A stretch of DNA of 64,000 bases from an uncultured Solirubrobacterales bacterium (GCA_963745625.1 CAVUXZ010000014.1:162787-226786); one strand, 5' to 3'; numbered from the stretch's first letter, positions 20,144 through 64,000 are shown. A program made the numbers and translations. The notes: a model not told the origin generated them from the letters alone.

Positions 20144-20229
20144 GGGCCGGCGGCGGTGGCCGTCGTGCGAGGCTGCGTCCGCAGCAGCGAGCAGTAGGCG
20201 GCTGCCGCCGTCGGCCCTGCGTCCCGCCG
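20144..20229. repeat. GC-rich dispersed repeat, copy A
   Basis: gggccggcg..gtgcgaggctgcgtccgcagcagcgagcagtaggcggctgccgccgtcggccc recurs at 57255-57339 and 57346-57404 with few mismatches. It lies in the intergenic gap between ino1 and the GT4-PHP gene. Confidence 0.7.
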
Positions 20230-52149: not shown

Positions 52150-53379
52150 TTAGGAGAGCCGGGAGTTCACGAGGACCCCGAACACCTCAATCGCTGCCCG
52201 CAGGTCGTCCTCATCGGTGTCCTCCTCGCGCGCATGGCTGACGCCGCCGATCGACGGCGAGAAGATCATCGCGGCGGGCATCCGCCCCGCCATCGAGGCA
52301 GCGTCGTGCAGCGCTCCGCTGGGGAGCGCGAAGGCCGTTCCCGTGACCTGTTCGCAGGCGTCCCGCGCCGAGGCGACCAGGGCGGGGTCGAAGGCGATCG
52401 GCTCGATGCTCCAGATCGGCTCCTCACTGGTCTCGCATCCCCGCAGCTCTGCGCTCTCGGCCACCGCCTCGCGAGTCTTGGCGAGCATTCGCGACAGGGC
52501 TTCAGCGTCGGGGTGGCGGAGGTCCACCTGCATCGAGGCGACCCCTGCGATTGCCGTGACTATCCCCGGCTCATAGTCGACCACGCCCACCGTGCCGACG
52601 CCGCTCTCCTGCCGGGCGATCTCCTCGATGCGCAGCGCCGCCGCCGCTGCGGCGAGCCCGGCATCGTGGCGGGCATCCATCGGCGTCGTGCCGGCATGAG
52701 CGGCGCGACCCCGCACCACGAAGCGGTGGCGCTCGACCCCGGCACACCCGGTCACCGCCGCGGCCCTGATCCCCTCCGCCTCCAGGGTCGGTCCCTGCTC
52801 GATGTGGAGCTCGAGGTAGGCGCTGAGCCTCTCCAGCCGGGAACCGCATTCGAGCACCCGCTCGAGGTGGACGCCGTTCTCGGCCAGAACGCCCGGGGCG
52901 CGCAGGCCCTCGGCGTCCCGGGCGTTCGCGAGCGCGGCCGGATCCAGGGTGCCCGCCGCCGCCGAGCTGCCGAACAGGCTCCGCCCGAAGCGGGCCCCCT
53001 CCTCGTCGGCCCAATCGACCAGCGCGAGAGTCCGCGGCGGCTTGTCCTCCGCGCCCACCCAGGCCCGCAGCACACCGAGCCCCCCCATCACGCCGAGGGC
53101 GCCGTCGAGCCAGCCGCCGTCCGGAACGGAGTCGACGTGGGAACCGACGGCGAGCGCCGCTTCGGCCTCGCCCGGGAGGTACACCCAGGCGTTTCCCGCC
53201 TCGTCGACCTCGGGCTCGAGCCCGATCTCGCCGAGCAGCTCGCGCACGTACTCGCGTGCCCGCCGCCACCCGTCGCCCCAGCAGAGCCGCTGCGCGCCAT
53301 TCCCATCTCCCGTCCGGCTTTGCAGCTCGCGCAGGTCGGCGATCACGCGCTCCGCGTCGATCGCCGGTCCATCGCTCAC
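52150..53379 (-). CDS. M20-family amidohydrolase (N-carbamoyl-amino-acid / allantoate / ureido-compound hydrolase type)
   Basis: RLCWGDGW...AGNAWVYLPG...VGSHVDSVPDGGWLDGALGV pattern of AmaB/AllC-type carbamoylases. The GTG start at 53379 overlaps the upstream stop (GTGA). Confidence 0.85.
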   Translation of the reverse strand: MSDGPAIDAERVIADLRELQSRTGDGNGAQRLCWGDGWRRAREYVRELLGEIGLEPEVDEAGNAWVYLPGEAEAALAVGSHVDSVPDGGWLDGALGVMGGLGVLRAWVGAEDKPPRTLALVDWADEEGARFGRSLFGSSAAAGTLDPAALANARDAEGLRAPGVLAENGVHLERVLECGSRLERLSAYLELHIEQGPTLEAEGIRAAAVTGCAGVERHRFVVRGRAAHAGTTPMDARHDAGLAAAAAALRIEEIARQESGVGTVGVVDYEPGIVTAIAGVASMQVDLRHPDAEALSRMLAKTREAVAESAELRGCETSEEPIWSIEPIAFDPALVASARDACEQVTGTAFALPSGALHDAASMAGRMPAAMIFSPSIGGVSHAREEDTDEDDLRAAIEVFGVLVNSRLS

Positions 53380-54248
53380 CCCACGCGCTCCCTTCGGAGC
53401 GCCTGGCTCAGGCAGTGGGGGCCACCGCCGCCCAACGTGAACATCGAGAGGTCGAGCTCGATCACCTCCAGCCCGCGGGAGCGCAGTGCGGCGTTGAGCT
53501 CTACGGCCCCGGCGGCCGAGATGACCCGCTCGCCGCCGAGCGAGATCGCGTTCACGCCGAGGGTGAAGGCCTGCTCCTCGCTGATGTGGATCAGGTCGAA
53601 GTCCTTGGCGCGCAGCCACTCGACCGCATCATTCGGGAGCACGTCGGAGCAGACCGCGGCCAGCTTCTCCGCCAGCACCGCGACCAGCACGTCGATGTGG
53701 ACGTAGCGCTCGGGGAACGGCTGGACGCGGGCCTCCCAACCGTCCTCGCTGTACCAGGCCGCCAGCTGGGTTGCCGCGACCTCCTGGGTCCGGCCCTCTC
53801 CGGTGCCGATCAGCACCGCGCCGGGCTCGACGATCATCACGTCACCGCCCTCGAGCGATCCGGCCGTGATCATGCCGCGGATCGGGATGCCGGCCCGCTG
53901 GTAGAAACGGATCGCCGGCGCGTACTCGCCGCGGCGCCACCACTGAGCCGGCTGGGTGATCACCGCTCCCTTCGGTCCCATCGTGCTCGAATCGCGCGTG
54001 AACACCTCATACGGCAGAGCCGGCTCGGAATCGAGGAAGTGGCAGCGGACTCCCCCCTCCTCGTAGGCGGCGACCAGGCCGGCGTGTTGCTTGGCGACGA
54101 CCTCCGGGTCGAAGCGATGACCCTCCTCGAGGGTGGCCCGGGTGATTGCGCTCGTCTCGCGCCAGCGGAAGCTGTCCGGCGGGCAGACCAGGACGTCGAG
54201 CAGCCGCCCGTGCTCGGAGTCGACACCCCAGGCCGGCTCCTCGCTCAT
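53376..54248 (-). CDS. amidinotransferase-fold guanidino-group-modifying enzyme (DDAH / arginine-deiminase-like)
   Basis: 290 aa. ..VFTRDSS.., ..LEGGDV.. and C-terminal GGGPHCLSQ (catalytic Cys). ATGA overlap with the upstream gene. Confidence 0.8.
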   Translation of the reverse strand: MSEEPAWGVDSEHGRLLDVLVCPPDSFRWRETSAITRATLEEGHRFDPEVVAKQHAGLVAAYEEGGVRCHFLDSEPALPYEVFTRDSSTMGPKGAVITQPAQWWRRGEYAPAIRFYQRAGIPIRGMITAGSLEGGDVMIVEPGAVLIGTGEGRTQEVAATQLAAWYSEDGWEARVQPFPERYVHIDVLVAVLAEKLAAVCSDVLPNDAVEWLRAKDFDLIHISEEQAFTLGVNAISLGGERVISAAGAVELNAALRSRGLEVIELDLSMFTLGGGGPHCLSQALRRERVG

Positions 54249-55738
54249 TCGGTCACCACCCGAATCGTCCGCAGAGTGCGGTCGCTCGCGCCGCGGACCA
54301 GGCCTCCGTGCGCAAGGGAATCGGCGATGTAGGCGATGGTCGGGCCAGTCAGGCGCTCGCCGGGAAGGACGTTGGGGACGCCGGGCGGGTAGGCGGCGAG
54401 GGACTCGGCCGCGATCCTGCCCTCGGCCCGGTCGAACGGCACCACCTCCTGCGGCCCCAGGAACGCGTCGCGCGGGGCCAGGTCGAGCGGCCCCCATGGA
54501 GGAGGCTCGGCGAACGCGCGCCGCCTCTCGACATCGGCCGGCCCGATCTGCTCGACCGCGTGCCGAAGCCCCTCGACCAGGCGCTCCAACGGCGCGGTCG
54601 GTGTCTCGCCGATCCCGGAGACGGCGACGATCACGTTCTCGGAGTAGAGCTCCACGATGATGTCGTCCTTCTCCCGCATCAGCTGGGCGATGCGATGGCC
54701 GGTGACGCCAGTCCCCCTGACGTCGATCGAGAGCCGCAGCGGATCCCAGGCGGCGACGCTGGTGCGACCGGCGAGCCGCTCGTCGAGAACCTTCAAGCCG
54801 GGGATCTTGCGGATCTCCTCGCGGGTCCTCGCCAAGGACTCAAGCGTCCCTGAGAGCAGCTCCTGTCCCCGGGTCGCGGCGAATCGCCGAGCGGCGTCCA
54901 GGGAGGCCGTCAGCAGCGCGTTGGGGCTGGTGGACTCGACGAGCGTCACCGATCGGTCGATCAGGTCCTCGTCGACCTTGCCGCCCTTCCCGAGGTGGAG
55001 GATGGCCGACTGGGTCAGGCTGCCGACGATCTTGTGGGTGCTTGAGAGAACCAGGTCCGCTCCGTTGCGAAGGGCGCCGGTCGGCAGCGCCGGGTGGAAG
55101 TAGAGGTGTGATCCCCAGGCCTCGTCGACGACGAGCGGGACATCCCGGGCGTGCGCGACGGCGGCGAGATCTTCGATTCGGGCGACGGCCCCAAAGTAGG
55201 TGGGCGAGACCAGCATCGCGGCCTTCGCCTCGGGATCGGACTCGAGCGCCGCGTCGAGTGCCTCAGGTGTGACGCAGTGCGCGATGCCGAGCTGATTGTC
55301 GATCTCCGGGGCCACGAACGTCGGGCGCAGGCCGGAGAGCACCAGTCCGTCGATGATCGAGGAGTGGACGTTCCGCTGGACCACCACCCTCCCTCGGTGC
55401 GGCGGCCCGGTGGCGAGCTCGCCGGTCGCGTGAGCGAGGGTCATGCAGATCGCGTGGTTTCCGCCCGACGCTCCGTTGACCAGGAACCAGCTGCGCTGGG
55501 CGCCCCAGGCGTCGGCCGCGAGCTGCTGCGCGCGCTGGAAGGGCGTCGGCTCGGGCCCGACGTCGATCCCCTCGATGCTCGGCGGAACGTCGTGGAGGAT
55601 CGCCGCCTCTCCCAGTGCCTCGATCAGCTCGGGGTCGGCGCCGGTCCCCTTGTGGCCGGGGATGTGGAAGCGCCCCGGATCGCGCGCCACGTATTCGACG
55701 ACCGCGTCGAGGTAGGGGGCCTCGGTCTGGTCGGCCAC
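54245..55738 (-). CDS. PLP-dependent Orn/Lys/Arg decarboxylase (OKR_DC_1, Bacillus SpeA-like)
   Basis: FHIPGHKG, STHKIVGSLTQSAILH (PLP lysine). The GTG start lies 2 nt after the ALDH stop. Confidence 0.85.
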   Translation of the reverse strand: MADQTEAPYLDAVVEYVARDPGRFHIPGHKGTGADPELIEALGEAAILHDVPPSIEGIDVGPEPTPFQRAQQLAADAWGAQRSWFLVNGASGGNHAICMTLAHATGELATGPPHRGRVVVQRNVHSSIIDGLVLSGLRPTFVAPEIDNQLGIAHCVTPEALDAALESDPEAKAAMLVSPTYFGAVARIEDLAAVAHARDVPLVVDEAWGSHLYFHPALPTGALRNGADLVLSSTHKIVGSLTQSAILHLGKGGKVDEDLIDRSVTLVESTSPNALLTASLDAARRFAATRGQELLSGTLESLARTREEIRKIPGLKVLDERLAGRTSVAAWDPLRLSIDVRGTGVTGHRIAQLMREKDDIIVELYSENVIVAVSGIGETPTAPLERLVEGLRHAVEQIGPADVERRRAFAEPPPWGPLDLAPRDAFLGPQEVVPFDRAEGRIAAESLAAYPPGVPNVLPGERLTGPTIAYIADSLAHGGLVRGASDRTLRTIRVVTE

Positions 55739-55740
55739 CC

Positions 55741-57240
55741 CTACGCCCCATGCGGCGGCTCGCCGCCGGTGTAGCTCGAGTACGGGTACCACCACTCCTT
55801 CGGAGCGACCTCGCTCTCGATGTGGACGTGCTTGGTCTCCTGGAAAGCCTCGAGCCCCTCGCGGCCAAGCTCCCTGCCGAGCCCCGACTGCTTGAAGCCT
55901 CCGAAGGGACCGGCGTCGTTGTCGGTCAGAGGATCGTTGAACCAGACCGTCCCCGCCTTCACCTCGCGCATGCAGCGCAGGATCGTCTTGAAGTCCTCCG
56001 TGTAGATGTTGGCACCGAGCCCATAGGGGGTGGAGTTCGCCAGCTCGATCGCCTCGTCCAAGCTGCCGACCCGGACCAGCGGCGCGACTGGCCCGAAGGT
56101 CTCCTCCCGGAGCAGATCGGTCTCGGCCGGCGCACCGGTGACGACCGCCGGAGAGAAGAAGTGGCCACGCTCGTGCCCCGCGTCGTCGCCGCCCACCACG
56201 AGATCGGCGCCGGCGCCGACCGCGGCCTCCACCTGATCGGCCACCTTCTGGCGCTGGGCGGCTGAGACCATCGGCCCGATGTCGGTGTCGCTCTGCATCG
56301 GGTCACCGATCACGAGGCTCCTGGTGTAGTCGACGAGCGCCGACAGGTAGTCGTCGTAGACGTCATCCAGCACGTAGAAACGCTCTGCCGATGTGCAGAC
56401 CTGGCCGGAGTTGAGGAAGGCCGCCCAGGCGCCGCCCTTGGCGGCGACGTCGATCCGCTCGGCGACGTCAGAGCAGACGATGAAGGGGTCCTTTCCTCCC
56501 ATCTCGAGGTTGACGCGGGCCATCCGGTCGACGCAGGCCCGAGCGACCTCCTTGCCGGTCGCCACCGAGCCGGTGAAGGCGACGCCGTCGACCCTGGGGT
56601 CGCCCGTGATCGCCGCGCCGACCGGCGGCCCGCCGGCGATCAGGTTGACGACGCCCGGTGGCAGGTGGTCCAGGCACGGGGACAACATCAGCGTCGAGAT
56701 CGGCGTCAGCTCGGAGGGCTTGCAGACCAGCGTGTTACCGGCCGCCAGCGCCGGCGCCATCTTCCAGGCGAGGAGCAGCAGCGGATAGTTCCAGGGCACG
56801 ATGCAGCCGATCACGCCGAGCGGCTCCTTCACCACCAGCGAGAGCTGGCTCGACTCGATCGAGGGGATCACCCGGCCCGCGGAATCCCGTCCGATCTCGG
56901 CGTAGTAGTCGAAGCACGCGGCGGTCCAGCCGATCTCGTCGGAGTTCTCGACCAGCGGCTTGCCGCCCTCGAGCGTCATCACCTCGGCCAGCTCGTCGAT
57001 CCGCGCCCGCAGCCGATTTGCGACCTCACGCAGAAGCTCACCGCGATCAACCGCCGGAGTCCTGGCCCAGTCGAGCGCCGCCTCGCGGGCGGCTGAGATC
57101 GCAGCATCGACCTGCTCATCACCGGCACCCCCCACCGAAGCAATCACCTCCTCGGTGTAGGGATTCTCGACCTCGAGAACCAGACCATCGCCTGAGACCT
57201 GCTCACCGTGAATCAGCAGTCGGGTCTCGAAATCGGCCAC
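55741..57240 (-). CDS. NAD(P)+-dependent aldehyde dehydrogenase (aminobutyraldehyde/betaine-aldehyde DH-like)
   Basis: VPWNYPL, FTGSVATGK, LEMGGKDP, NSGQVCTSAER, EETFGPV motifs. Confidence 0.92.
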   Translation of the reverse strand: MADFETRLLIHGEQVSGDGLVLEVENPYTEEVIASVGGAGDEQVDAAISAAREAALDWARTPAVDRGELLREVANRLRARIDELAEVMTLEGGKPLVENSDEIGWTAACFDYYAEIGRDSAGRVIPSIESSQLSLVVKEPLGVIGCIVPWNYPLLLLAWKMAPALAAGNTLVCKPSELTPISTLMLSPCLDHLPPGVVNLIAGGPPVGAAITGDPRVDGVAFTGSVATGKEVARACVDRMARVNLEMGGKDPFIVCSDVAERIDVAAKGGAWAAFLNSGQVCTSAERFYVLDDVYDDYLSALVDYTRSLVIGDPMQSDTDIGPMVSAAQRQKVADQVEAAVGAGADLVVGGDDAGHERGHFFSPAVVTGAPAETDLLREETFGPVAPLVRVGSLDEAIELANSTPYGLGANIYTEDFKTILRCMREVKAGTVWFNDPLTDNDAGPFGGFKQSGLGRELGREGLEAFQETKHVHIESEVAPKEWWYPYSSYTGGEPPHGA

Positions 57241-57254
57241 GAGCCGATGCTATT

Positions 57255-57404
57255 GGGCCGGCGACGGTGGTCGCCGTGCGAGGCTGCCTCCGCAGCAGCG
57301 AGCAGTAGGCGACTGCCGGCGTCGGCCCAATGTCCCGGCGAGGCGGCGAGGCTGCGTCCGCAGCAGCGAGCAGTAGGCGGCTACCGGCGTCGGACCCGCG
57401 TCCC
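57255..57404. repeat. GC-rich dispersed repeat, copies B (57255-57339) and C (57346-57404) in tandem
   Basis: The core gcgaggctgc(c/g)tccgcagcagcgagcagtaggcg(a/g)ct(g/a)ccggcgtcgg is shared with 20144-20229. These copies generate spurious ORFs on both strands. Confidence 0.7.
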
Positions 57405-57514
57405 TGAGAGCAAGGCGGGGTCAGGACGGCCAGGGGGAGAAGGAAACCGGCCGCCCTATCCGCCCGCCTGCGCCGAGGCTGAAACCCGGCGGAGGCGAGG
57501 CAACTGACATATGT

Positions 57515-57553
57515 GGGCGGGCGCCGGAGTAGGGGGTCTCCGAACGCCCGCCC
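57515..57553 (-). terminator. candidate terminator hairpin after the basic-protein gene
   Basis: GGGCGGGCG ... CGCCCGCCC 9-bp stem, extended by inner CGGAG/CTCCG pairing, ~60 nt after the stop at 57615. No clear U-tract. Confidence 0.45.
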
Positions 57554-57614
57554 GCTGCCTCGACTCAAACAGCGCGTACCCCTGCCTCCAGCTACCTAAA
57601 CCCGGGGAACCAGA

Positions 57615-57959
57615 TCAGCGATTTTTCGCGGCGACCGCTCGTTGCAACTGGCTCTTGTTCATGCTCGAGCGACCGTCGATTCGCAGGCGCTTCGCCTGGT
57701 TGTAGAGCTGCTCCTTGGTCTGGCCCTTCTGCCGGTTGGTGCCCGATTTCCGCCCACCGCGGCTCTGCGGCGAGGATCCCTTGGTCGAGCTGCGCGACCG
57801 CGTTCGTGACTCGCCGGAGCGCGCCCGGTTCTTGTTGACGGTGCGAGCGGCCATCTCCTCGGCGCGTGAGGCCGAGGCGCCGCGGCCGCGCGCACTCTTC
57901 TTGATCTTCTCGTACTGCCTGGCACGTTTGGTGTCCTTCTTGACGCCGCGGGGTGGCAT
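57615..57959 (-). CDS. highly basic small protein with a C-terminal Rho_N/SAP-like motif
   Basis: GAAGGAG RBS. MPPRGVKKDTKRARQYEKIKKSARGRGAS..AEEMAARTVNK and a tail TKEQLYNQAKRLRIDGRSSMNKSQLQRAV. Confidence 0.6.
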   Translation of the reverse strand: MPPRGVKKDTKRARQYEKIKKSARGRGASASRAEEMAARTVNKNRARSGESRTRSRSSTKGSSPQSRGGRKSGTNRQKGQTKEQLYNQAKRLRIDGRSSMNKSQLQRAVAAKNR

Positions 57960-60643: not shown

Positions 60644-62176
60644 TCAGTCCGACATCACGGACGCTTCGCCTTTGACAGTTCCCTCGAGAATCCCGGGGTC
60701 GGCGGTCTCCGGCTTCCGTCTGAAGAAGCTGGGATAGACGACGTTCGCAATGAACATCACCACGACTCCGACGAGGAGCATGCCAATGCCGATTGCGACC
60801 GGGACGCCGAACCCGAGGAACTTGCCCGCGTACGTATTCTCCACCTTGTTGTAGTCGATGGCCGCCTTGATGAAGATGCCCGTCAGCATCAGGCCTCCGA
60901 CGAACGGAACGAGACCGGCCATGAAGAAGTTGCGGAAGCTACGCGCGAGCTGCTTGCGATAGAAGATCGCGCACGCGAAGCCGGTGATCCCGTAGTAGAA
61001 GGCAATCTGGAAGCCCAGGGCGCTGATCGAGTCCCCGAGCACGTTCTGGCTGACATTGATGATGAACAACGTCCAGATCAGGGAAACGGCACCCATCACG
61101 ATCGTCGAGACGTCAGGTGTGAGATGACTGGGATGGATGCGCCCGAACGCCTTGGGGATCGCGCCGAAGCGCGCCATCGAGAGCGTTGTCCTCGCCGTTG
61201 GCAGGATCGTCGTCTGGGTTGACGCCGATGCCGAGGTGAGCACGGCGATGATCAGCAGCTTGTCCCATGGCGTTCCGAAGACGTCTCCGCCCAGTGCGCT
61301 GAGCACGTCGTCACCGTGGTGCTTCAGGAAGATCGTGCCGGCGAACGACTGAGCGGACGCCGAAACCGCGACGTAGATGAGGACCAGCAGCAGCGTGCTC
61401 ATGACGGCCGCCTTCCCGGGGCCGCTGGCGCTGTCCCGGGATTCCTCGTTCACGCAGACGCCGCTGTCCCAGCCCCAGTAGATGAAGACGCCGAGCAGGA
61501 CGCCGTCGACCAGCGCACTCCAGCCGCCTGGCAGCCCAAATGGTGAGAACCAGAAGAGCTCGACCGGGGTTCCCTGATGTCCGATGTAGACATGACCCAG
61601 GGCGATGGCACAGAAGACGCCCAGAATCACTATCTCCGCAGTCAGGAGCACGTACTGGATCCGGGCCGAGAGCTCAATGCCCACGTAGCAGATCCAGGTC
61701 ATCACTCCGATCCAGACTGCGGCTGCGATGCTCACGTCCAGCAGGCTGTTGGCCGCTGCGTCCAAGCCGAAGAGGAGGAAGGTGTACTTACCCGCGATGT
61801 AGGCCAGGGCGGCCATCACCACTACGTCGGAGACGATGATCGCCCAGCCGGTGAGCCAGCCGAGCCGGGGGCCCATCGCCCTTGTAACCCAGGTGAAGCT
61901 GGTGCCGCAGTCCGGGTCCGCTCTGTTGAGCCAGTAGTAACCCGCAGCGATCAAAAGCATCGGTATGAAGGAGACGATCATGACCGCGGGCGCGTGGGCG
62001 CCCATGCCCCCTACCGCGACGATGAACCCGAGGGTCGCCGCCAGGCTGTACGCCGGCGCCACCGAAGCGGTGGAGATGACGAGGTTCGAGAGGTAGCCCA
62101 GGGCTCCGGTCTTCAGACCCTTGTCGCCCTCCTTGGCATGACTCGGTCCGCCGGCTGCGACTGAAGCGCTCTCCAT
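60644..62176 (-). CDS. APC-superfamily amino acid/polyamine permease
   Basis: About 12 TM helices. AAGGAG RBS 6 nt before the ATG at 62176 (MESASVAAGG...). The earlier ATG at 62221 is less likely. Confidence 0.85.
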   Translation of the reverse strand: MESASVAAGGPSHAKEGDKGLKTGALGYLSNLVISTASVAPAYSLAATLGFIVAVGGMGAHAPAVMIVSFIPMLLIAAGYYWLNRADPDCGTSFTWVTRAMGPRLGWLTGWAIIVSDVVVMAALAYIAGKYTFLLFGLDAAANSLLDVSIAAAVWIGVMTWICYVGIELSARIQYVLLTAEIVILGVFCAIALGHVYIGHQGTPVELFWFSPFGLPGGWSALVDGVLLGVFIYWGWDSGVCVNEESRDSASGPGKAAVMSTLLLVLIYVAVSASAQSFAGTIFLKHHGDDVLSALGGDVFGTPWDKLLIIAVLTSASASTQTTILPTARTTLSMARFGAIPKAFGRIHPSHLTPDVSTIVMGAVSLIWTLFIINVSQNVLGDSISALGFQIAFYYGITGFACAIFYRKQLARSFRNFFMAGLVPFVGGLMLTGIFIKAAIDYNKVENTYAGKFLGFGVPVAIGIGMLLVGVVVMFIANVVYPSFFRRKPETADPGILEGTVKGEASVMSD

Positions 62177-62292
62177 CCACTTCTCCTTCCCTAGCGGGCC
62201 CGTTCGAGCCCGATTGGCCACCGCGGTGGCGCGAGGCTATGGAACACGCCAGATCGTCGCAAGTGGCGAAAGCCCCAAAAGCGGGGTCGCCC

Positions 62293-62403: not shown

Positions 62404-63831
62404 ATGGCAGTTACGAGCGCCCCGCAACAGGCCAAGGCCGAGGCGAAGACACTTCAGGAGCAGGCGCAACGCCACCTCTGGATGCACTTCACTCGGATGG
62501 GAGGCTTCGGTCCTGAGCACGAGGTGCCGATCATCGTCCGCGGTGAGGGCTGCTATGTGTGGGACGACCACGGCAATCGCTACCTCGACGGCCTCTCCGC
62601 CCTCTTCTGCGTCAACTCGGGCCATGGCCGGAGCGAGCTCGGCGACGCGATGGCCGCTCAGGTCCGCGAGCTCGACTTCATCACGGTCTGGAGCTACGCG
62701 CACCCGCGCGCGATCGAGCTGGCGACGCGGATCGCCTCGCTCGCCCCGGGCGACCTGAACCGGGCCTTCTTCACCAACAGCGGCTCCGAGGCGGTGGAGT
62801 CTGCGATGAAGCTCGTCCGCAGCTACCACCGCGCCAGGGGCAACGGCCAGAAGGCGAAGCTGATCGCCCGGGAGATCGCCTACCACGGCACCACGCTCGG
62901 GGCATTGAGCGCGACGGGCATCCCGGCGCTCCGCAGCAACTTCGAGCCACTCGCCCCAGGCAGCGTTCACGTTCCCAACACCAACAGCTACCGCTGGCCC
63001 GCCGATCGCGACCCGCTCTGGGCGGCGGACCAGATCGAGGAGGCGATCCTCTTCGAGGAACCGGAGACGGTGGGCGCAGTGATCCTCGAGCCGCTCCAGA
63101 ACGCCGGCGGCTGCATCCCGCCGCAGCCCGGCTACTTTCAGCGGGTTCGCGAGATCTGCGACCGCTACGACGTGCTCTTGATCTCCGATGAGGTGATCTG
63201 CGCCTGGGGGCGTCTCGGTCACTACTTCGGCTGCCAGCGCTACGGCTACCAGCCCGACATCGTCACGGTCGCCAAGGCCCTCACCTCCGCCTACGTGCCC
63301 ATGGGCGGAATGATCGTCAGCGACGAGGTGTTCGAGCCGTTCGCGGAGGAGACCGCGATGTTCGCGCACGGCTCGACCTTCGGGGGGCACCCGGTGGCCG
63401 CCGCGACGGCGATGGCGAACCTCGACGTCTTCGAGCGCGAGGACCTCTGCGGCCATGTCCTGGAGAAGGAGCCCGAGTTCAGGGCGGCGCTGGAGACCCT
63501 CTATGACATCCCGATCGTCGGAGACATACGTGGAGACGGGTACTTCTTCGCGATCGAGCTGGTCAGGGACAAGGAGACCAAGGAGTCGCTGGAGGACGGG
63601 GAGTCGGAAGCCCTGCTCCGCGGCTATATGTCCGGCGAGCTCTACAGGCGCGGCCTGATCTGCCGCGCTGACGATCGCGGGGACCCGGTCATCCAGCTCT
63701 CCCCGCCACTGATCGCCGACACCGAGCAATTCCAGGAGATCGTCGACGTTCTTCGTCCAGTCCTGGAAGAGTCATCCCGCCGTGTAGGTCACGGAGGCGG
63801 ACCGCGTTCAGGTCGACGCCTCCGGAGCTAG
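62404..63831 (+). CDS. class-III (omega) aminotransferase, putrescine/GABA/beta-alanine-pyruvate type
   Basis: NSGSEAVESAMK, DEVICAWGRLG, AKALTSAY (PLP lysine context). AGGAGG RBS. Confidence 0.9.
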   Translation: MAVTSAPQQAKAEAKTLQEQAQRHLWMHFTRMGGFGPEHEVPIIVRGEGCYVWDDHGNRYLDGLSALFCVNSGHGRSELGDAMAAQVRELDFITVWSYAHPRAIELATRIASLAPGDLNRAFFTNSGSEAVESAMKLVRSYHRARGNGQKAKLIAREIAYHGTTLGALSATGIPALRSNFEPLAPGSVHVPNTNSYRWPADRDPLWAADQIEEAILFEEPETVGAVILEPLQNAGGCIPPQPGYFQRVREICDRYDVLLISDEVICAWGRLGHYFGCQRYGYQPDIVTVAKALTSAYVPMGGMIVSDEVFEPFAEETAMFAHGSTFGGHPVAAATAMANLDVFEREDLCGHVLEKEPEFRAALETLYDIPIVGDIRGDGYFFAIELVRDKETKESLEDGESEALLRGYMSGELYRRGLICRADDRGDPVIQLSPPLIADTEQFQEIVDVLRPVLEESSRRVGHGGGPRSGRRLRS

Positions 63832-64000
63832 ATGCTCACCGTCGAGAGCCTCACCTCCGAGCTAGGCCTCAAGGTCCTGGCGGGAGAGGACGGCGCGGCT
63901 GAGGGGGAGATTCGCTGGGTCCACATCACTGAGCTGCTCGACCCGACGCCGTGGCTCTCCGGCGGCGAGCTCCTGATGACCACCGGAATCAGGCTCGAGA
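63832..64000 (+). CDS. PucR-family transcriptional regulator, N-terminal fragment (continues beyond window)
   Basis: MLTVESLTSELGLKVLAGEDGAAEGEIRWVHITELLDPTPWLSGGELLMTTG is the typical PucR N-domain opening. The start abuts the aminotransferase stop. Confidence 0.75.
   Translation, partial: MLTVESLTSELGLKVLAGEDGAAEGEIRWVHITELLDPTPWLSGGELLMTTGIRLE

Follow-up and report, generated by a model that had tools for sequence, protein, structure and literature searches.

A conserved operon of a decarboxylase, an ADI/DDAH-fold deiminase and an M20 amidase in Solirubrobacterales probably removes the guanidino group without urea in arginine breakdown

Fungi convert agmatine to GABA via 4-guanidinobutyrate. 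A Pseudomonas aeruginosa route, consisting of the aldehyde dehydrogenase (ALDH) KauB and the guanidino-acid hydrolase GbuA, also ends in GABA. Three agmatine-to-putrescine routes and two non-homologous N-carbamoylputrescine amidohydrolases were counted by Li et al. 2025 (PMC12283126). The AguA+AguB and AguA+AguY systems turn the guanidino group into a ureido group plus NH3 and the ureido group into an amine plus CO2 and NH3, using a PAD_porph deiminase and either a nitrilase (AguB) or an amidase-signature enzyme (AguY). The SpeA-SpeB pair consists of a decarboxylase and one urea-forming Mn enzyme. Urea-free hydrolysis of the guanidino group is also carried out by ADI with RocB in B. subtilis (PMC10404663) and by ArgZ/AgrE, ArgZ alone doing both steps.

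An operon of an uncultured Solirubrobacterales, a soil actinobacterium, probably encodes an undescribed urea-free removal of the guanidino group in arginine breakdown, by a GME-fold deiminase and an M20 amidase. The proposed chemistry is that of AguA+AguB and AguA+AguY, the place after an arginine decarboxylase would be the same, and the pair is likewise interchangeable with a one-step ureohydrolase. However, the deiminase is of the ADI/DDAH type and not PAD_porph, the amidohydrolase is of the M20 metallo-type, and both enzymes keep carboxylate-binding arginines that are needless for an agmatine route. As in SpeA-SpeB, a decarboxylase comes with a deguanidinating enzyme, and the exact two-gene layout is found in one congener (G016) and in a sister family. 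Unlike SpeA-SpeB, the operon uses two ammonia-releasing hydrolases and a short AAT-fold decarboxylase, and the ureohydrolase that replaces the pair is nearer to GbuA than to SpeB. An ALDH is present as in GbuA + KauB but is inconsistently linked, and the literature searched gave no deiminase/ureidohydrolase version of the guanidinobutyrase step. This deiminase has the ADI motifs, and the N-domain of ArgZ is among the closest folds to its predicted model (TM-score 0.81-0.83); the 290-aa protein is without the helical domain of ADI. The M20 protein belongs to the TIGR01879 carbamoylase family and is probably not of the RocB type, and the operon has no OTC or carbamate kinase context.

The window analysed is a 64,000-nucleotide stretch of this genome with the following features.

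52150-53379, minus strand: M20 protein (P0004), hydantoinase/carbamoylase family, 409 aa, GTG start
53376-54248, minus strand: GME-fold protein (P0003), ADI/DDAH fold, 290 aa, ATG start
54245-55738, minus strand: decarboxylase (DC), 497 aa, GTG start
55741-57240, minus strand: NAD(P)-dependent ALDH (P0001), 499 aa, GTG start
60644-62221, minus strand: APC-family amino-acid/amine permease (PF13520, 86.1 bits), loosely linked to the operon
62404-63831, plus strand: class-III amine transaminase (NF005102, 725 bits, cut-off 574)
63832-64000, plus strand: start of a gene for a PucR/PmfR-like regulator that continues beyond the window (full product in the genome, 516 aa)

Translation of the window gave the first four as coupled minus-strand ORFs, with a GC3 of 0.89-0.91. 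Read directly, the ALDH and DC genes are separated by 2 nt (...GCG TAG GG GTG GCC), the DC and GME genes share an ATGA overlap (ACCGAATGAGC) and the GME and M20 genes a GTGA overlap (GCGTGGGGTGAGCG). These junctions agree with an earlier note on this DNA, whose family calls also match Pfam and NCBIfam (Aldedh; OKR_DC_1 + OKR_DC_1_C; DDAH_eukar/ADI; Peptidase_M20 with TIGR01879). All four proteins score under every NCBIfam equivalog cut-off.

The ALDH-DC-GME-M20 order is kept in 14 of the 15 congeners examined, and DC-GME-M20 in three further genera of the family, a second family and a 48%-identical metagenomic relative; thus the arrangement is not due to chance. The conserved core is the decarboxylase, the deiminase and the M20 protein. 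A genuine DC-GME fusion has a 19-aa linker (P0274), and GME and M20 are fused in frame in G043. The G043 fusion, which is distant, adjoins an NCS1 (allantoin/hydantoin-type) permease. No hydantoinase or dihydropyrimidinase was linked in ~30 loci, and the hydantoin or pyrimidine context that the earlier note had named as contrary to its reading was not seen. The ALDH, which that note had put in the unit, opens the operon in this genus, is accessory to the core and is largely confined to the genus. G005 (92% complete) has the operon without it, ALDH orthologues occur both with and without the GME/M20 pair and are unlinked in other genera, and the triad-carrying genomes G005, G027 and G162 (99% complete) have no detected orthologue.

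The locus of G016, a genome of the same genus, reads ADH - secreted protein - ureohydrolase - DC (82% identical) - ALDH (86%) - sigma module. It is syntenic with the window, with one arginase-fold ureohydrolase in the GME+M20 slot. Four sister-family genera have the DC orthologue (61-65% identical) followed by the same ureohydrolase family with a 4-nt overlap. The same-slot swap indicates that the pair performs, by two successive hydrolyses (2 NH3 + CO2), the job that the ureohydrolase does in one (urea), and it bears out the earlier proposal that the GME-fold and M20 proteins are non-orthologous replacements. The swapped ureohydrolase exceeds the cut-off of the agmatinase model TIGR01230 (211-224 bits, cut-off 174), falls below that of the arginase model (79-87 bits, cut-off 228) and does not reach that of PRK02190 (282-291 bits, cut-off 302). 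Among solved structures its nearest is P. aeruginosa guanidinobutyrase GbuA (260 bits), with guanidinopropionase GpuA at 256 and E. coli agmatinase SpeB at 175. It has Ser at the position of Trp68, which in E. coli agmatinase holds the amine of agmatine. The stretch S-x-x-x-R-P-Y is common to it and GbuA, and "agmatinase" labels are unreliable in its clade (PMC9772407).

The decarboxylase is a short AAT-fold Orn/Lys/Arg decarboxylase of the SpeA/YaaO type, with PF01276 (184.7 bits, residues 8-377) and PF03711 (39 bits, residues 428-472) in its 497 aa and no N-terminal receiver-like wing. It is the sole OKR_DC_1 gene per genome. Orthologues with 54-65% identity are found across the order whether the pair is present or absent, and in several genomes the gene is solitary. 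The DC tree showed no separation by partner type; ureohydrolase-linked DCs nest within GME/M20-linked DCs on short branches, which argues for one function throughout. Two complete relatives carry canonical aguA-aguB together with one OKR_DC_1 gene, the DC orthologue, and one AR-fold decarboxylase, and pyruvoyl ADC was not found in these two. Because its orthologue is the only ADC candidate there, DC is probably an arginine decarboxylase. The AguA-AguB of those relatives could act on imported agmatine, which counts against this argument.

The deiminase matches PF19420 (70.7 bits) and PF02274 (69.5 bits) and no other Pfam family. Aligned to PaDDAH it keeps Cys279, His184, Glu133, Asp86, Arg105 and Arg153. 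With roles assigned after PMC11659421, these include the triad C279/H184/E133 and the carboxylate-binding R105 and R153 of ADI, accompanied by the motifs FTRD (F83-T-R-D86), EGGD (E133-G-G-D136) and H-I-D (H184-I-D186). R105 and R153, whose ADI and DDAH counterparts bind the carboxylate of the substrate (PMC11659421), are invariant across 50 family members. Tyr80 stands where the alpha-amine-binding Asp/Asn would be, and the two arginines of the distal pocket have triad-clade-specific neighbours, Q102 and W104 by R105 and E151 by R153. The distal pocket thus appears remodelled, which was counted for agmatine as the substrate. The AF2 model (pLDDT 96.7) has NnhA, DDAH, ArgZ/AgrE and ADI as Foldseek neighbours, and the matches span just 0.57-0.59 of ADI chains. 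The protein differs in size and score from ArcA-type ADI, which runs to ~410 aa and carries an inserted helical domain (TIGR01078, 55.9 bits against 489; NF002381, 61.6 against 414). DDAH was rejected on scores (NF045659, 75.7 against 300; NF045660, 73.4 against 340; NF045658, 58.7 against 450 bits) and on H-I-D in place of H-x-K, whose Lys makes room for N-methyl groups; H-x-D suits an unsubstituted guanidino group (PMC11659421). The PAD_porph agmatine deiminase AguA was rejected for want of a PF04371 match. A search found no PF04371 in 36 congeners, six sister-family genomes and two g10 genomes, so that no rival enzyme for the deiminase step was found there and the earlier view that the classical deiminase is replaced is supported. 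Canonical AguA is carried by g3 relatives.

The M20 protein scores 299.5 bits against TIGR01879 hydantoinase/carbamoylase (cut-off 204) and stays below the narrower models for allantoate amidohydrolase (NF006771, 344.8 against 399) and ErtE (296.7 against 520). Its nearest solved structures are N-carbamoyl-L-amino-acid hydrolases and an N-carbamoyl-beta-alanine amidohydrolase. E126/E127, H192, Q195, H228, R288 and H382 do not vary among 23 orthologues; the counterpart of R288 binds the substrate carboxylate in M20 relatives, which take N-carbamoyl gamma-amino acids via this Arg (PMC10952681). With their catalytic residues intact, both the deiminase and the M20 amidase look active. As a Peptidase_M20 the protein has neither the CN_hydrolase fold of AguB nor the amidase-signature fold of AguY, and it could be an N-carbamoylputrescine amidohydrolase by function. 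Compared by model names only, none of its 20 NCBIfam matches bears the name RocB, and it has 409 aa against ~566 aa.

The operon ALDH (Pfam Aldedh, 521.7 bits) is best matched in NCBIfam by aminobutyraldehyde and betaine-aldehyde dehydrogenases, none reaching cut-off; for gamma-aminobutyraldehyde dehydrogenase the scores are 425.8 against 615 (NF010000) and 319.8 against 909 (TIGR03374). A paralogue 3.7 kb past the window end scores 710.4 bits against 615. Because this better aminobutyraldehyde dehydrogenase sits just past the window, the operon ALDH may serve another role. The APC permease, class-III aminotransferase and PucR regulator noted earlier are all present. The permease gene is directly beside the ALDH gene in G033, without the sigma module between, and in G430 and G291 APC permeases lie after or beside DC-GME-M20. 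Among solved structures the transaminase is nearest to Sbv333-ATA, an amine transaminase from Streptomyces (604 bits; PMC12343752). The transaminase gene is followed, past the window, by genes for the PucR/PmfR-like regulator (L121:619-2169; NF045769 PmfR, 118.9 bits, under cut-off), alanine dehydrogenase and the aminobutyraldehyde dehydrogenase. This adjoining cluster fits onward flow to GABA, as the earlier note had suggested.

We tentatively favour, at a little short of an even chance, a route in which the short AAT-fold decarboxylase would convert arginine to agmatine, the 290-aa Cys hydrolase would take one guanidino nitrogen off as NH3 to leave the ureido group of N-carbamoylputrescine, and the M20 amidase would hydrolyse this to putrescine, CO2 and NH3. 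Putrescine would then go on to GABA in this genus through the nearby amine transaminase and an aldehyde dehydrogenase. The physical linkage (ATGA and GTGA overlaps, DC-GME fusion, GME-M20 fusion) was counted for one coupled module, and the earlier view that the genes work as a single unit on a guanidino compound derived from arginine is supported. We infer the substrates, the step order and the role, catabolic or biosynthetic, from the sequences.

Retention of the carboxylate-binding R105 and R153 in the deiminase and R288 in the M20 protein weighs against the agmatine route; agmatine and N-carbamoylputrescine have an ammonium at the end where a carboxylate would bind. So does the swapped ureohydrolase, nearer to GbuA and GpuA than to SpeB and without Trp68. 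As all three hydrolases keep carboxylate-binding features, room is left for two other routes. One, rather unlikely in our estimate, runs urea-free from arginine through agmatine, 4-guanidinobutanal, 4-guanidinobutyrate and 4-ureidobutyrate to GABA + CO2 + NH3. An amine transaminase or oxidase would make the aldehyde, the operon ALDH would oxidise it, and the deiminase and M20 amidase would finish, GME+M20 replacing guanidinobutyrase and not agmatinase. The likeness of the ureohydrolase to GbuA and GpuA and its S-x-x-x-R-P-Y stretch suit this route, as do the two arginines with Tyr80 in the deiminase, the kept R288 with the gamma-amino substrates of M20 relatives, and the broad amine transaminase alongside. 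The ALDH lies within the operon, also in the G016 version, its top family matches are cationic-aldehyde dehydrogenases, and the separate bona fide aminobutyraldehyde dehydrogenase frees it for another aldehyde. But the conserved unit, decarboxylase plus deguanidinase, would catalyse non-consecutive steps, the ALDH orthologue is unlinked in other genera and undetected in several triad genomes, and the literature searched gave neither an agmatine transaminase nor a guanidinobutyrate deiminase.

The second route, which we regard as improbable, has a minimal ADI make citrulline from arginine, an M20 citrullinase yield ornithine + CO2 + NH3, and DC act as an ODC to give putrescine. The ADI motifs and both arginines agree with it, and relatives are labelled "arginine deiminase family" in NCBI. 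Short AAT-fold ODCs are known (PMC8503589), and the solitary DC orthologues are as a self-sufficient ODC could be. RocB is a precedent for an M20 citrullinase (PMC10404663), so that this step is better defined genetically than the earlier note had it, yet no RocB-type model was matched by the M20 protein. The swapped ureohydrolase would need to be an arginase, against its score; DC comes first in the gene order, the aguA-aguB genomes offer no ADC candidate but its orthologue, the DC-GME fusion would join non-consecutive steps, and Tyr replaces the alpha-amine-binding residue. There is also a low probability that the substrate is a guanidino or ureido compound outside arginine-to-polyamine metabolism (homoarginine/lysine, canavanine, a hydantoin- or pyrimidine-derived ureido acid, or methylarginines). 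The sub-cut-off equivalog scores, the NCS1 permease in G043 and the unknown function of actinobacterial SpeA homologues according to Li et al. 2021 (PMC8503589) would allow this; the arginine-family swap partner, the lack of linked hydantoinase or dihydropyrimidinase genes in ~30 loci and, for methylarginines, H-x-D speak against it. The earlier interpretation is thus partly supported, for the functional unit, the non-orthologous replacement and the GABA cluster, and is revised for the ALDH role and the undefined citrullinase; its two step orders are not separated by sequence alone, and the third, via 4-guanidinobutyrate, fits the carboxylate-binding residues at least equally.

If the favoured agmatine route is true, each of the two known steps would gain a new fold, ADI/DDAH for the deiminase and M20 for the amidase; alternatively, a new guanidino-acid route would be defined. 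The short actinobacterial SpeA homologues would gain a testable function. Should the route through 4-guanidinobutyrate apply, which we think unlikely, the pair would be a previously undescribed 4-guanidinobutyrate deiminase and 4-ureidobutyrate amidohydrolase. It would then supply a catabolic role for the actinobacterial SpeA homologues and an enzymatic origin for 4-ureidobutyrate, a compound listed in metabolomics papers for which the literature searched gave no pathway. The 37 genomes of the genus gave no urease; direct ammonia release would recover nitrogen that a urea-forming enzyme would leave locked in urea. Relatives number in the thousands, and the best 120 (at least 79% identical) come mostly from metagenome collections (JGI, ENA and Logan), so that the route may be common in the turnover of arginine in the environment.

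The operon consists of four genes on the minus strand of contig C14, in a source genome that is 76% complete and about 70% G+C:

55741-57240, minus strand, aldehyde dehydrogenase (ALDH; Aldedh family)
54245-55738, minus strand, decarboxylase (DC; OKR_DC_1 and its C-domain, without the receiver-like wing)
53376-54248, minus strand, 290-aa predicted deiminase of the guanidino-modifying-enzyme fold (GME; DDAH_eukar/ADI)
52150-53379, minus strand, 409-aa carbamoylase-family amidase (M20; Peptidase_M20, above the TIGR01879 hydantoinase/carbamoylase cut-off)

Counting from ALDH, the first junction is a 2-nt gap, the second an ATGA overlap and the third a GTGA overlap. The coordinates and junctions confirm the tight coupling described in the earlier note, and family searches bore out its family calls for all four proteins. 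None of the four reached an equivalog cut-off in these searches.

The order ALDH-DC-GME-M20 is retained in 14 of the 15 loci within the genus; the exception, genome G005, is without ALDH. Three other genera of the same family retain DC-GME-M20 with no ALDH nearby. The second family with these genes is represented by two genomes. In one of them DC and GME-M20 converge; in the second, DC converges with GME only, the M20 gene being on a separate contig. ALDH in this family is about 4.7 kb off, behind housekeeping genes. DC-GME-M20 is also present in a metagenomic relative, 48% identical. ALDH orthologues are found in genomes that do not have GME and M20 and are missing from some that do, and ALDH was rejected as an integral part because of this independent distribution. 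From this conservation pattern, the core of the module is DC, GME and M20, and ALDH is accessory. Two fusions back the linkage of the module genes: a genuine DC-GME fusion with a 19-residue linker (12 member sequences) and an in-frame GME-M20 fusion in a distant relative, G043. Two other candidate GME-M20 fusions, P0276 and P0279, are frameshifted GME C-termini and were excluded from the evidence. GME relatives at 40-48% identity either lie on short contigs or have unrelated neighborhoods. The unpublished genome G147, which a phylum-wide search covered, underlies none of the claims.

The G043 fusion (L071:9290-11563) is a single 757-aa frame made up of homologues of GME (30% identical) and M20 (43% identical), and it is divergent from an NCS1 (allantoin/hydantoin-type) permease. 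G043 also carries canonical aguA-aguB, the genes of the canonical agmatine deiminase route, so the substrate of the fusion is probably another guanidino compound.

The key to the function of GME and M20 is an in-place swap. Across the order, DC orthologues (54-65% identity) occur much more widely than GME and M20 do. Four genera of a sister family have an arginase-fold ureohydrolase directly behind DC, the two genes overlapping by 4 nt. The clearest swap is found in G016, which belongs to the same genus as the window. The genes there run in the order ADH, secreted protein, ureohydrolase, DC, ALDH and sigma module, which is the synteny of the window with GME and M20 exchanged for a ureohydrolase that is 65% identical to that of the sister family. 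A maximum-likelihood tree places the ureohydrolase-linked DCs on short branches among the GME/M20-linked ones, which argues that DC has the same function in both settings. Together with the swap, this predicts that the deguanidination done by the ureohydrolase in a single step is split by GME and M20 into two hydrolyses.

Other neighbors of DC were also seen. At two loci of the sister family, the DC-ureohydrolase pair is followed by a translationally coupled gene for a hexapeptide-repeat acyltransferase (L106:4856-5458 and its counterpart in L105). At L109:7557-8075 in G060, a gene of the LOG/SLOG-cluster-4 family and the DC orthologue overlap; ureohydrolase, PAD_porph, GME and M20 were looked for in this one-contig genome (95% complete) and none was found.

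The two predicted hydrolases both look active. Alignment to P. aeruginosa DDAH showed that Cys249, His162, Glu114, Asp66, Arg85 and Arg132 are kept in the deiminase as C279, H184, E133, D86, R105 and R153, and the FTRD, EGGD and H-I-D motifs are present. In ADIs the Asp after the His stabilizes an unsubstituted guanidino group, the position being a Lys in DDAHs; in both families two arginines hold the substrate carboxylate and an Asp holds the alpha-amine (PMC11659421). The deiminase family has Tyr80 at the alpha-amine-binding position. The AF2 model of the window's deiminase is of high confidence (pLDDT 96.7) and has NnhA, DDAH, the ArgZ/AgrE arginine dihydrolase domain and ADI as fold neighbors. 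The requirement for an M20 partner would fit a one-step deiminase over a dihydrolase. Three residues specific to the clade with all three core genes, Q102, W104 and E151, cluster beside R105 and R153. This suggests a remodelled distal pocket, which does not in itself indicate the bound ligand. In M20 the catalytic Glu pair, the metal histidines, Gln195 and R288 are invariant among 23 orthologues; the Arg equivalent to R288 binds carboxylate in relatives (PMC10952681).

The same chemistry can be arranged in three substrate orders. In the leading one, to which we give a little less than an even chance, arginine would be converted to agmatine, N-carbamoylputrescine and then putrescine. Such a route parallels the classical exchange between SpeB and the pair AguA and AguB, and both fusions and the order of the genes agree with it. 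The swapped ureohydrolase scores above the TIGR01230 agmatinase model cut-off and below that of the arginase model. In two complete relatives with canonical aguA-aguB, the DC orthologue is the sole arginine decarboxylase candidate, and a search for PAD_porph in the window's genus found none. However, the deiminase and M20 both retain carboxylate-binding arginines, and the ureohydrolase is closer to guanidinobutyrase (260 bits) than to E. coli agmatinase (175 bits), whose Trp68 it lacks. Agmatinase labels in its clade are unreliable (PMC9772407).

All the residue evidence would be reconciled if agmatine were instead converted through 4-guanidinobutanal, 4-guanidinobutyrate and 4-ureidobutyrate to GABA, which would also give the operon ALDH a role separate from the true aminobutyraldehyde dehydrogenase just beyond the window. 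But this order relies on the inconsistently present ALDH, and the conserved pairing of DC with a deguanidinase would then join non-consecutive steps; we consider it unlikely. Conversion of arginine through citrulline and ornithine to putrescine fits the ADI-like motifs of the deiminase and the RocB precedent (PMC10404663), but it requires the ureohydrolase to be an arginase and DC an ODC; we consider it improbable. There is a similarly small chance that the substrates follow none of these orders.

Three routes from agmatine to putrescine were listed by Li et al. 2025 (PMC12283126), and short SpeA homologues from actinobacteria are of unknown function according to Li et al. 2021 (PMC8503589). 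In the literature searched, no M20 NCPAH, no agmatine or guanidinobutyrate deiminase with the ADI/DDAH fold and no DC-GME-M20 gene trio was described. The module follows familiar chemistry and pathway logic with unfamiliar enzymes, each substrate assignment being one that we infer.

An Rfam search for riboswitches upstream of the operon gave nothing that reached a gathering score (best, CcsR1, 24.5 bits vs 65.3), and a scan for consensus promoters and terminators gave nothing useful. A block of about 165 nt (57408-57570, minus strand) lies in the interval that separates the operon from a small basic-protein gene. Across 15 genomes of the genus its sequence is almost 100% identical while the flanks vary, and it was not found in other genera. 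The block has three predicted hairpins (MFE -99 kcal/mol, z = -6.3), two of them C-rich in the loop, and looks like a 6C/CcsR-type small RNA, with only the weak Rfam match to CcsR1. The small ORF upstream of it (57615-57959, minus strand) encodes a very basic, Lys/Arg/Ser-rich protein of 114 aa. At 57278-57410 is a tandem direct repeat of two 65-68-nt copies, 86% identical, overlapping an inverted repeat with 24-nt arms. Similar copies at about 20144-20229 of the window and at contig C3:43553-43628 make this a small dispersed repeat.

The surroundings of the operon bear on its role. The class-III transaminase has a Streptomyces amine transaminase as its closest solved structure (PMC12343752). 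After it, beyond the window, come a PucR/PmfR-like regulator and two dehydrogenases:

G000:C14:229280-231896 (L121:3281-5897), 2.5-5.1 kb past the window end, alanine dehydrogenase (TIGR00518, 500 bits vs 392) and a genuine aminobutyraldehyde dehydrogenase (NF010000, 710 bits vs 615)

These complete a putrescine-to-GABA cluster of the amine:pyruvate-transaminase type; transaminase, regulator, both dehydrogenases and the APC permease form an amine-to-GABA cluster. In G033, of the same genus, the transaminase and permease genes adjoin ALDH, so the sigma/anti-sigma module between them in the window is incidental. APC permeases also flank or follow DC-GME-M20 in two other genera. Urease was found in none of 37 genomes of the window's genus, nor in the sister family carrying the ureohydrolase, and was rejected as a discriminator since it does not tell the two deguanidination systems apart. 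Spermidine synthesis as a sink was also rejected, with only weak Spermine_synth matches in 2 of 5 genomes. Elsewhere, DC is set among housekeeping genes (leuS, comEA, comEC, holA), which makes it plausible that the module originated in biosynthesis, and in the window's genus the amine-to-GABA surroundings favor a catabolic role.
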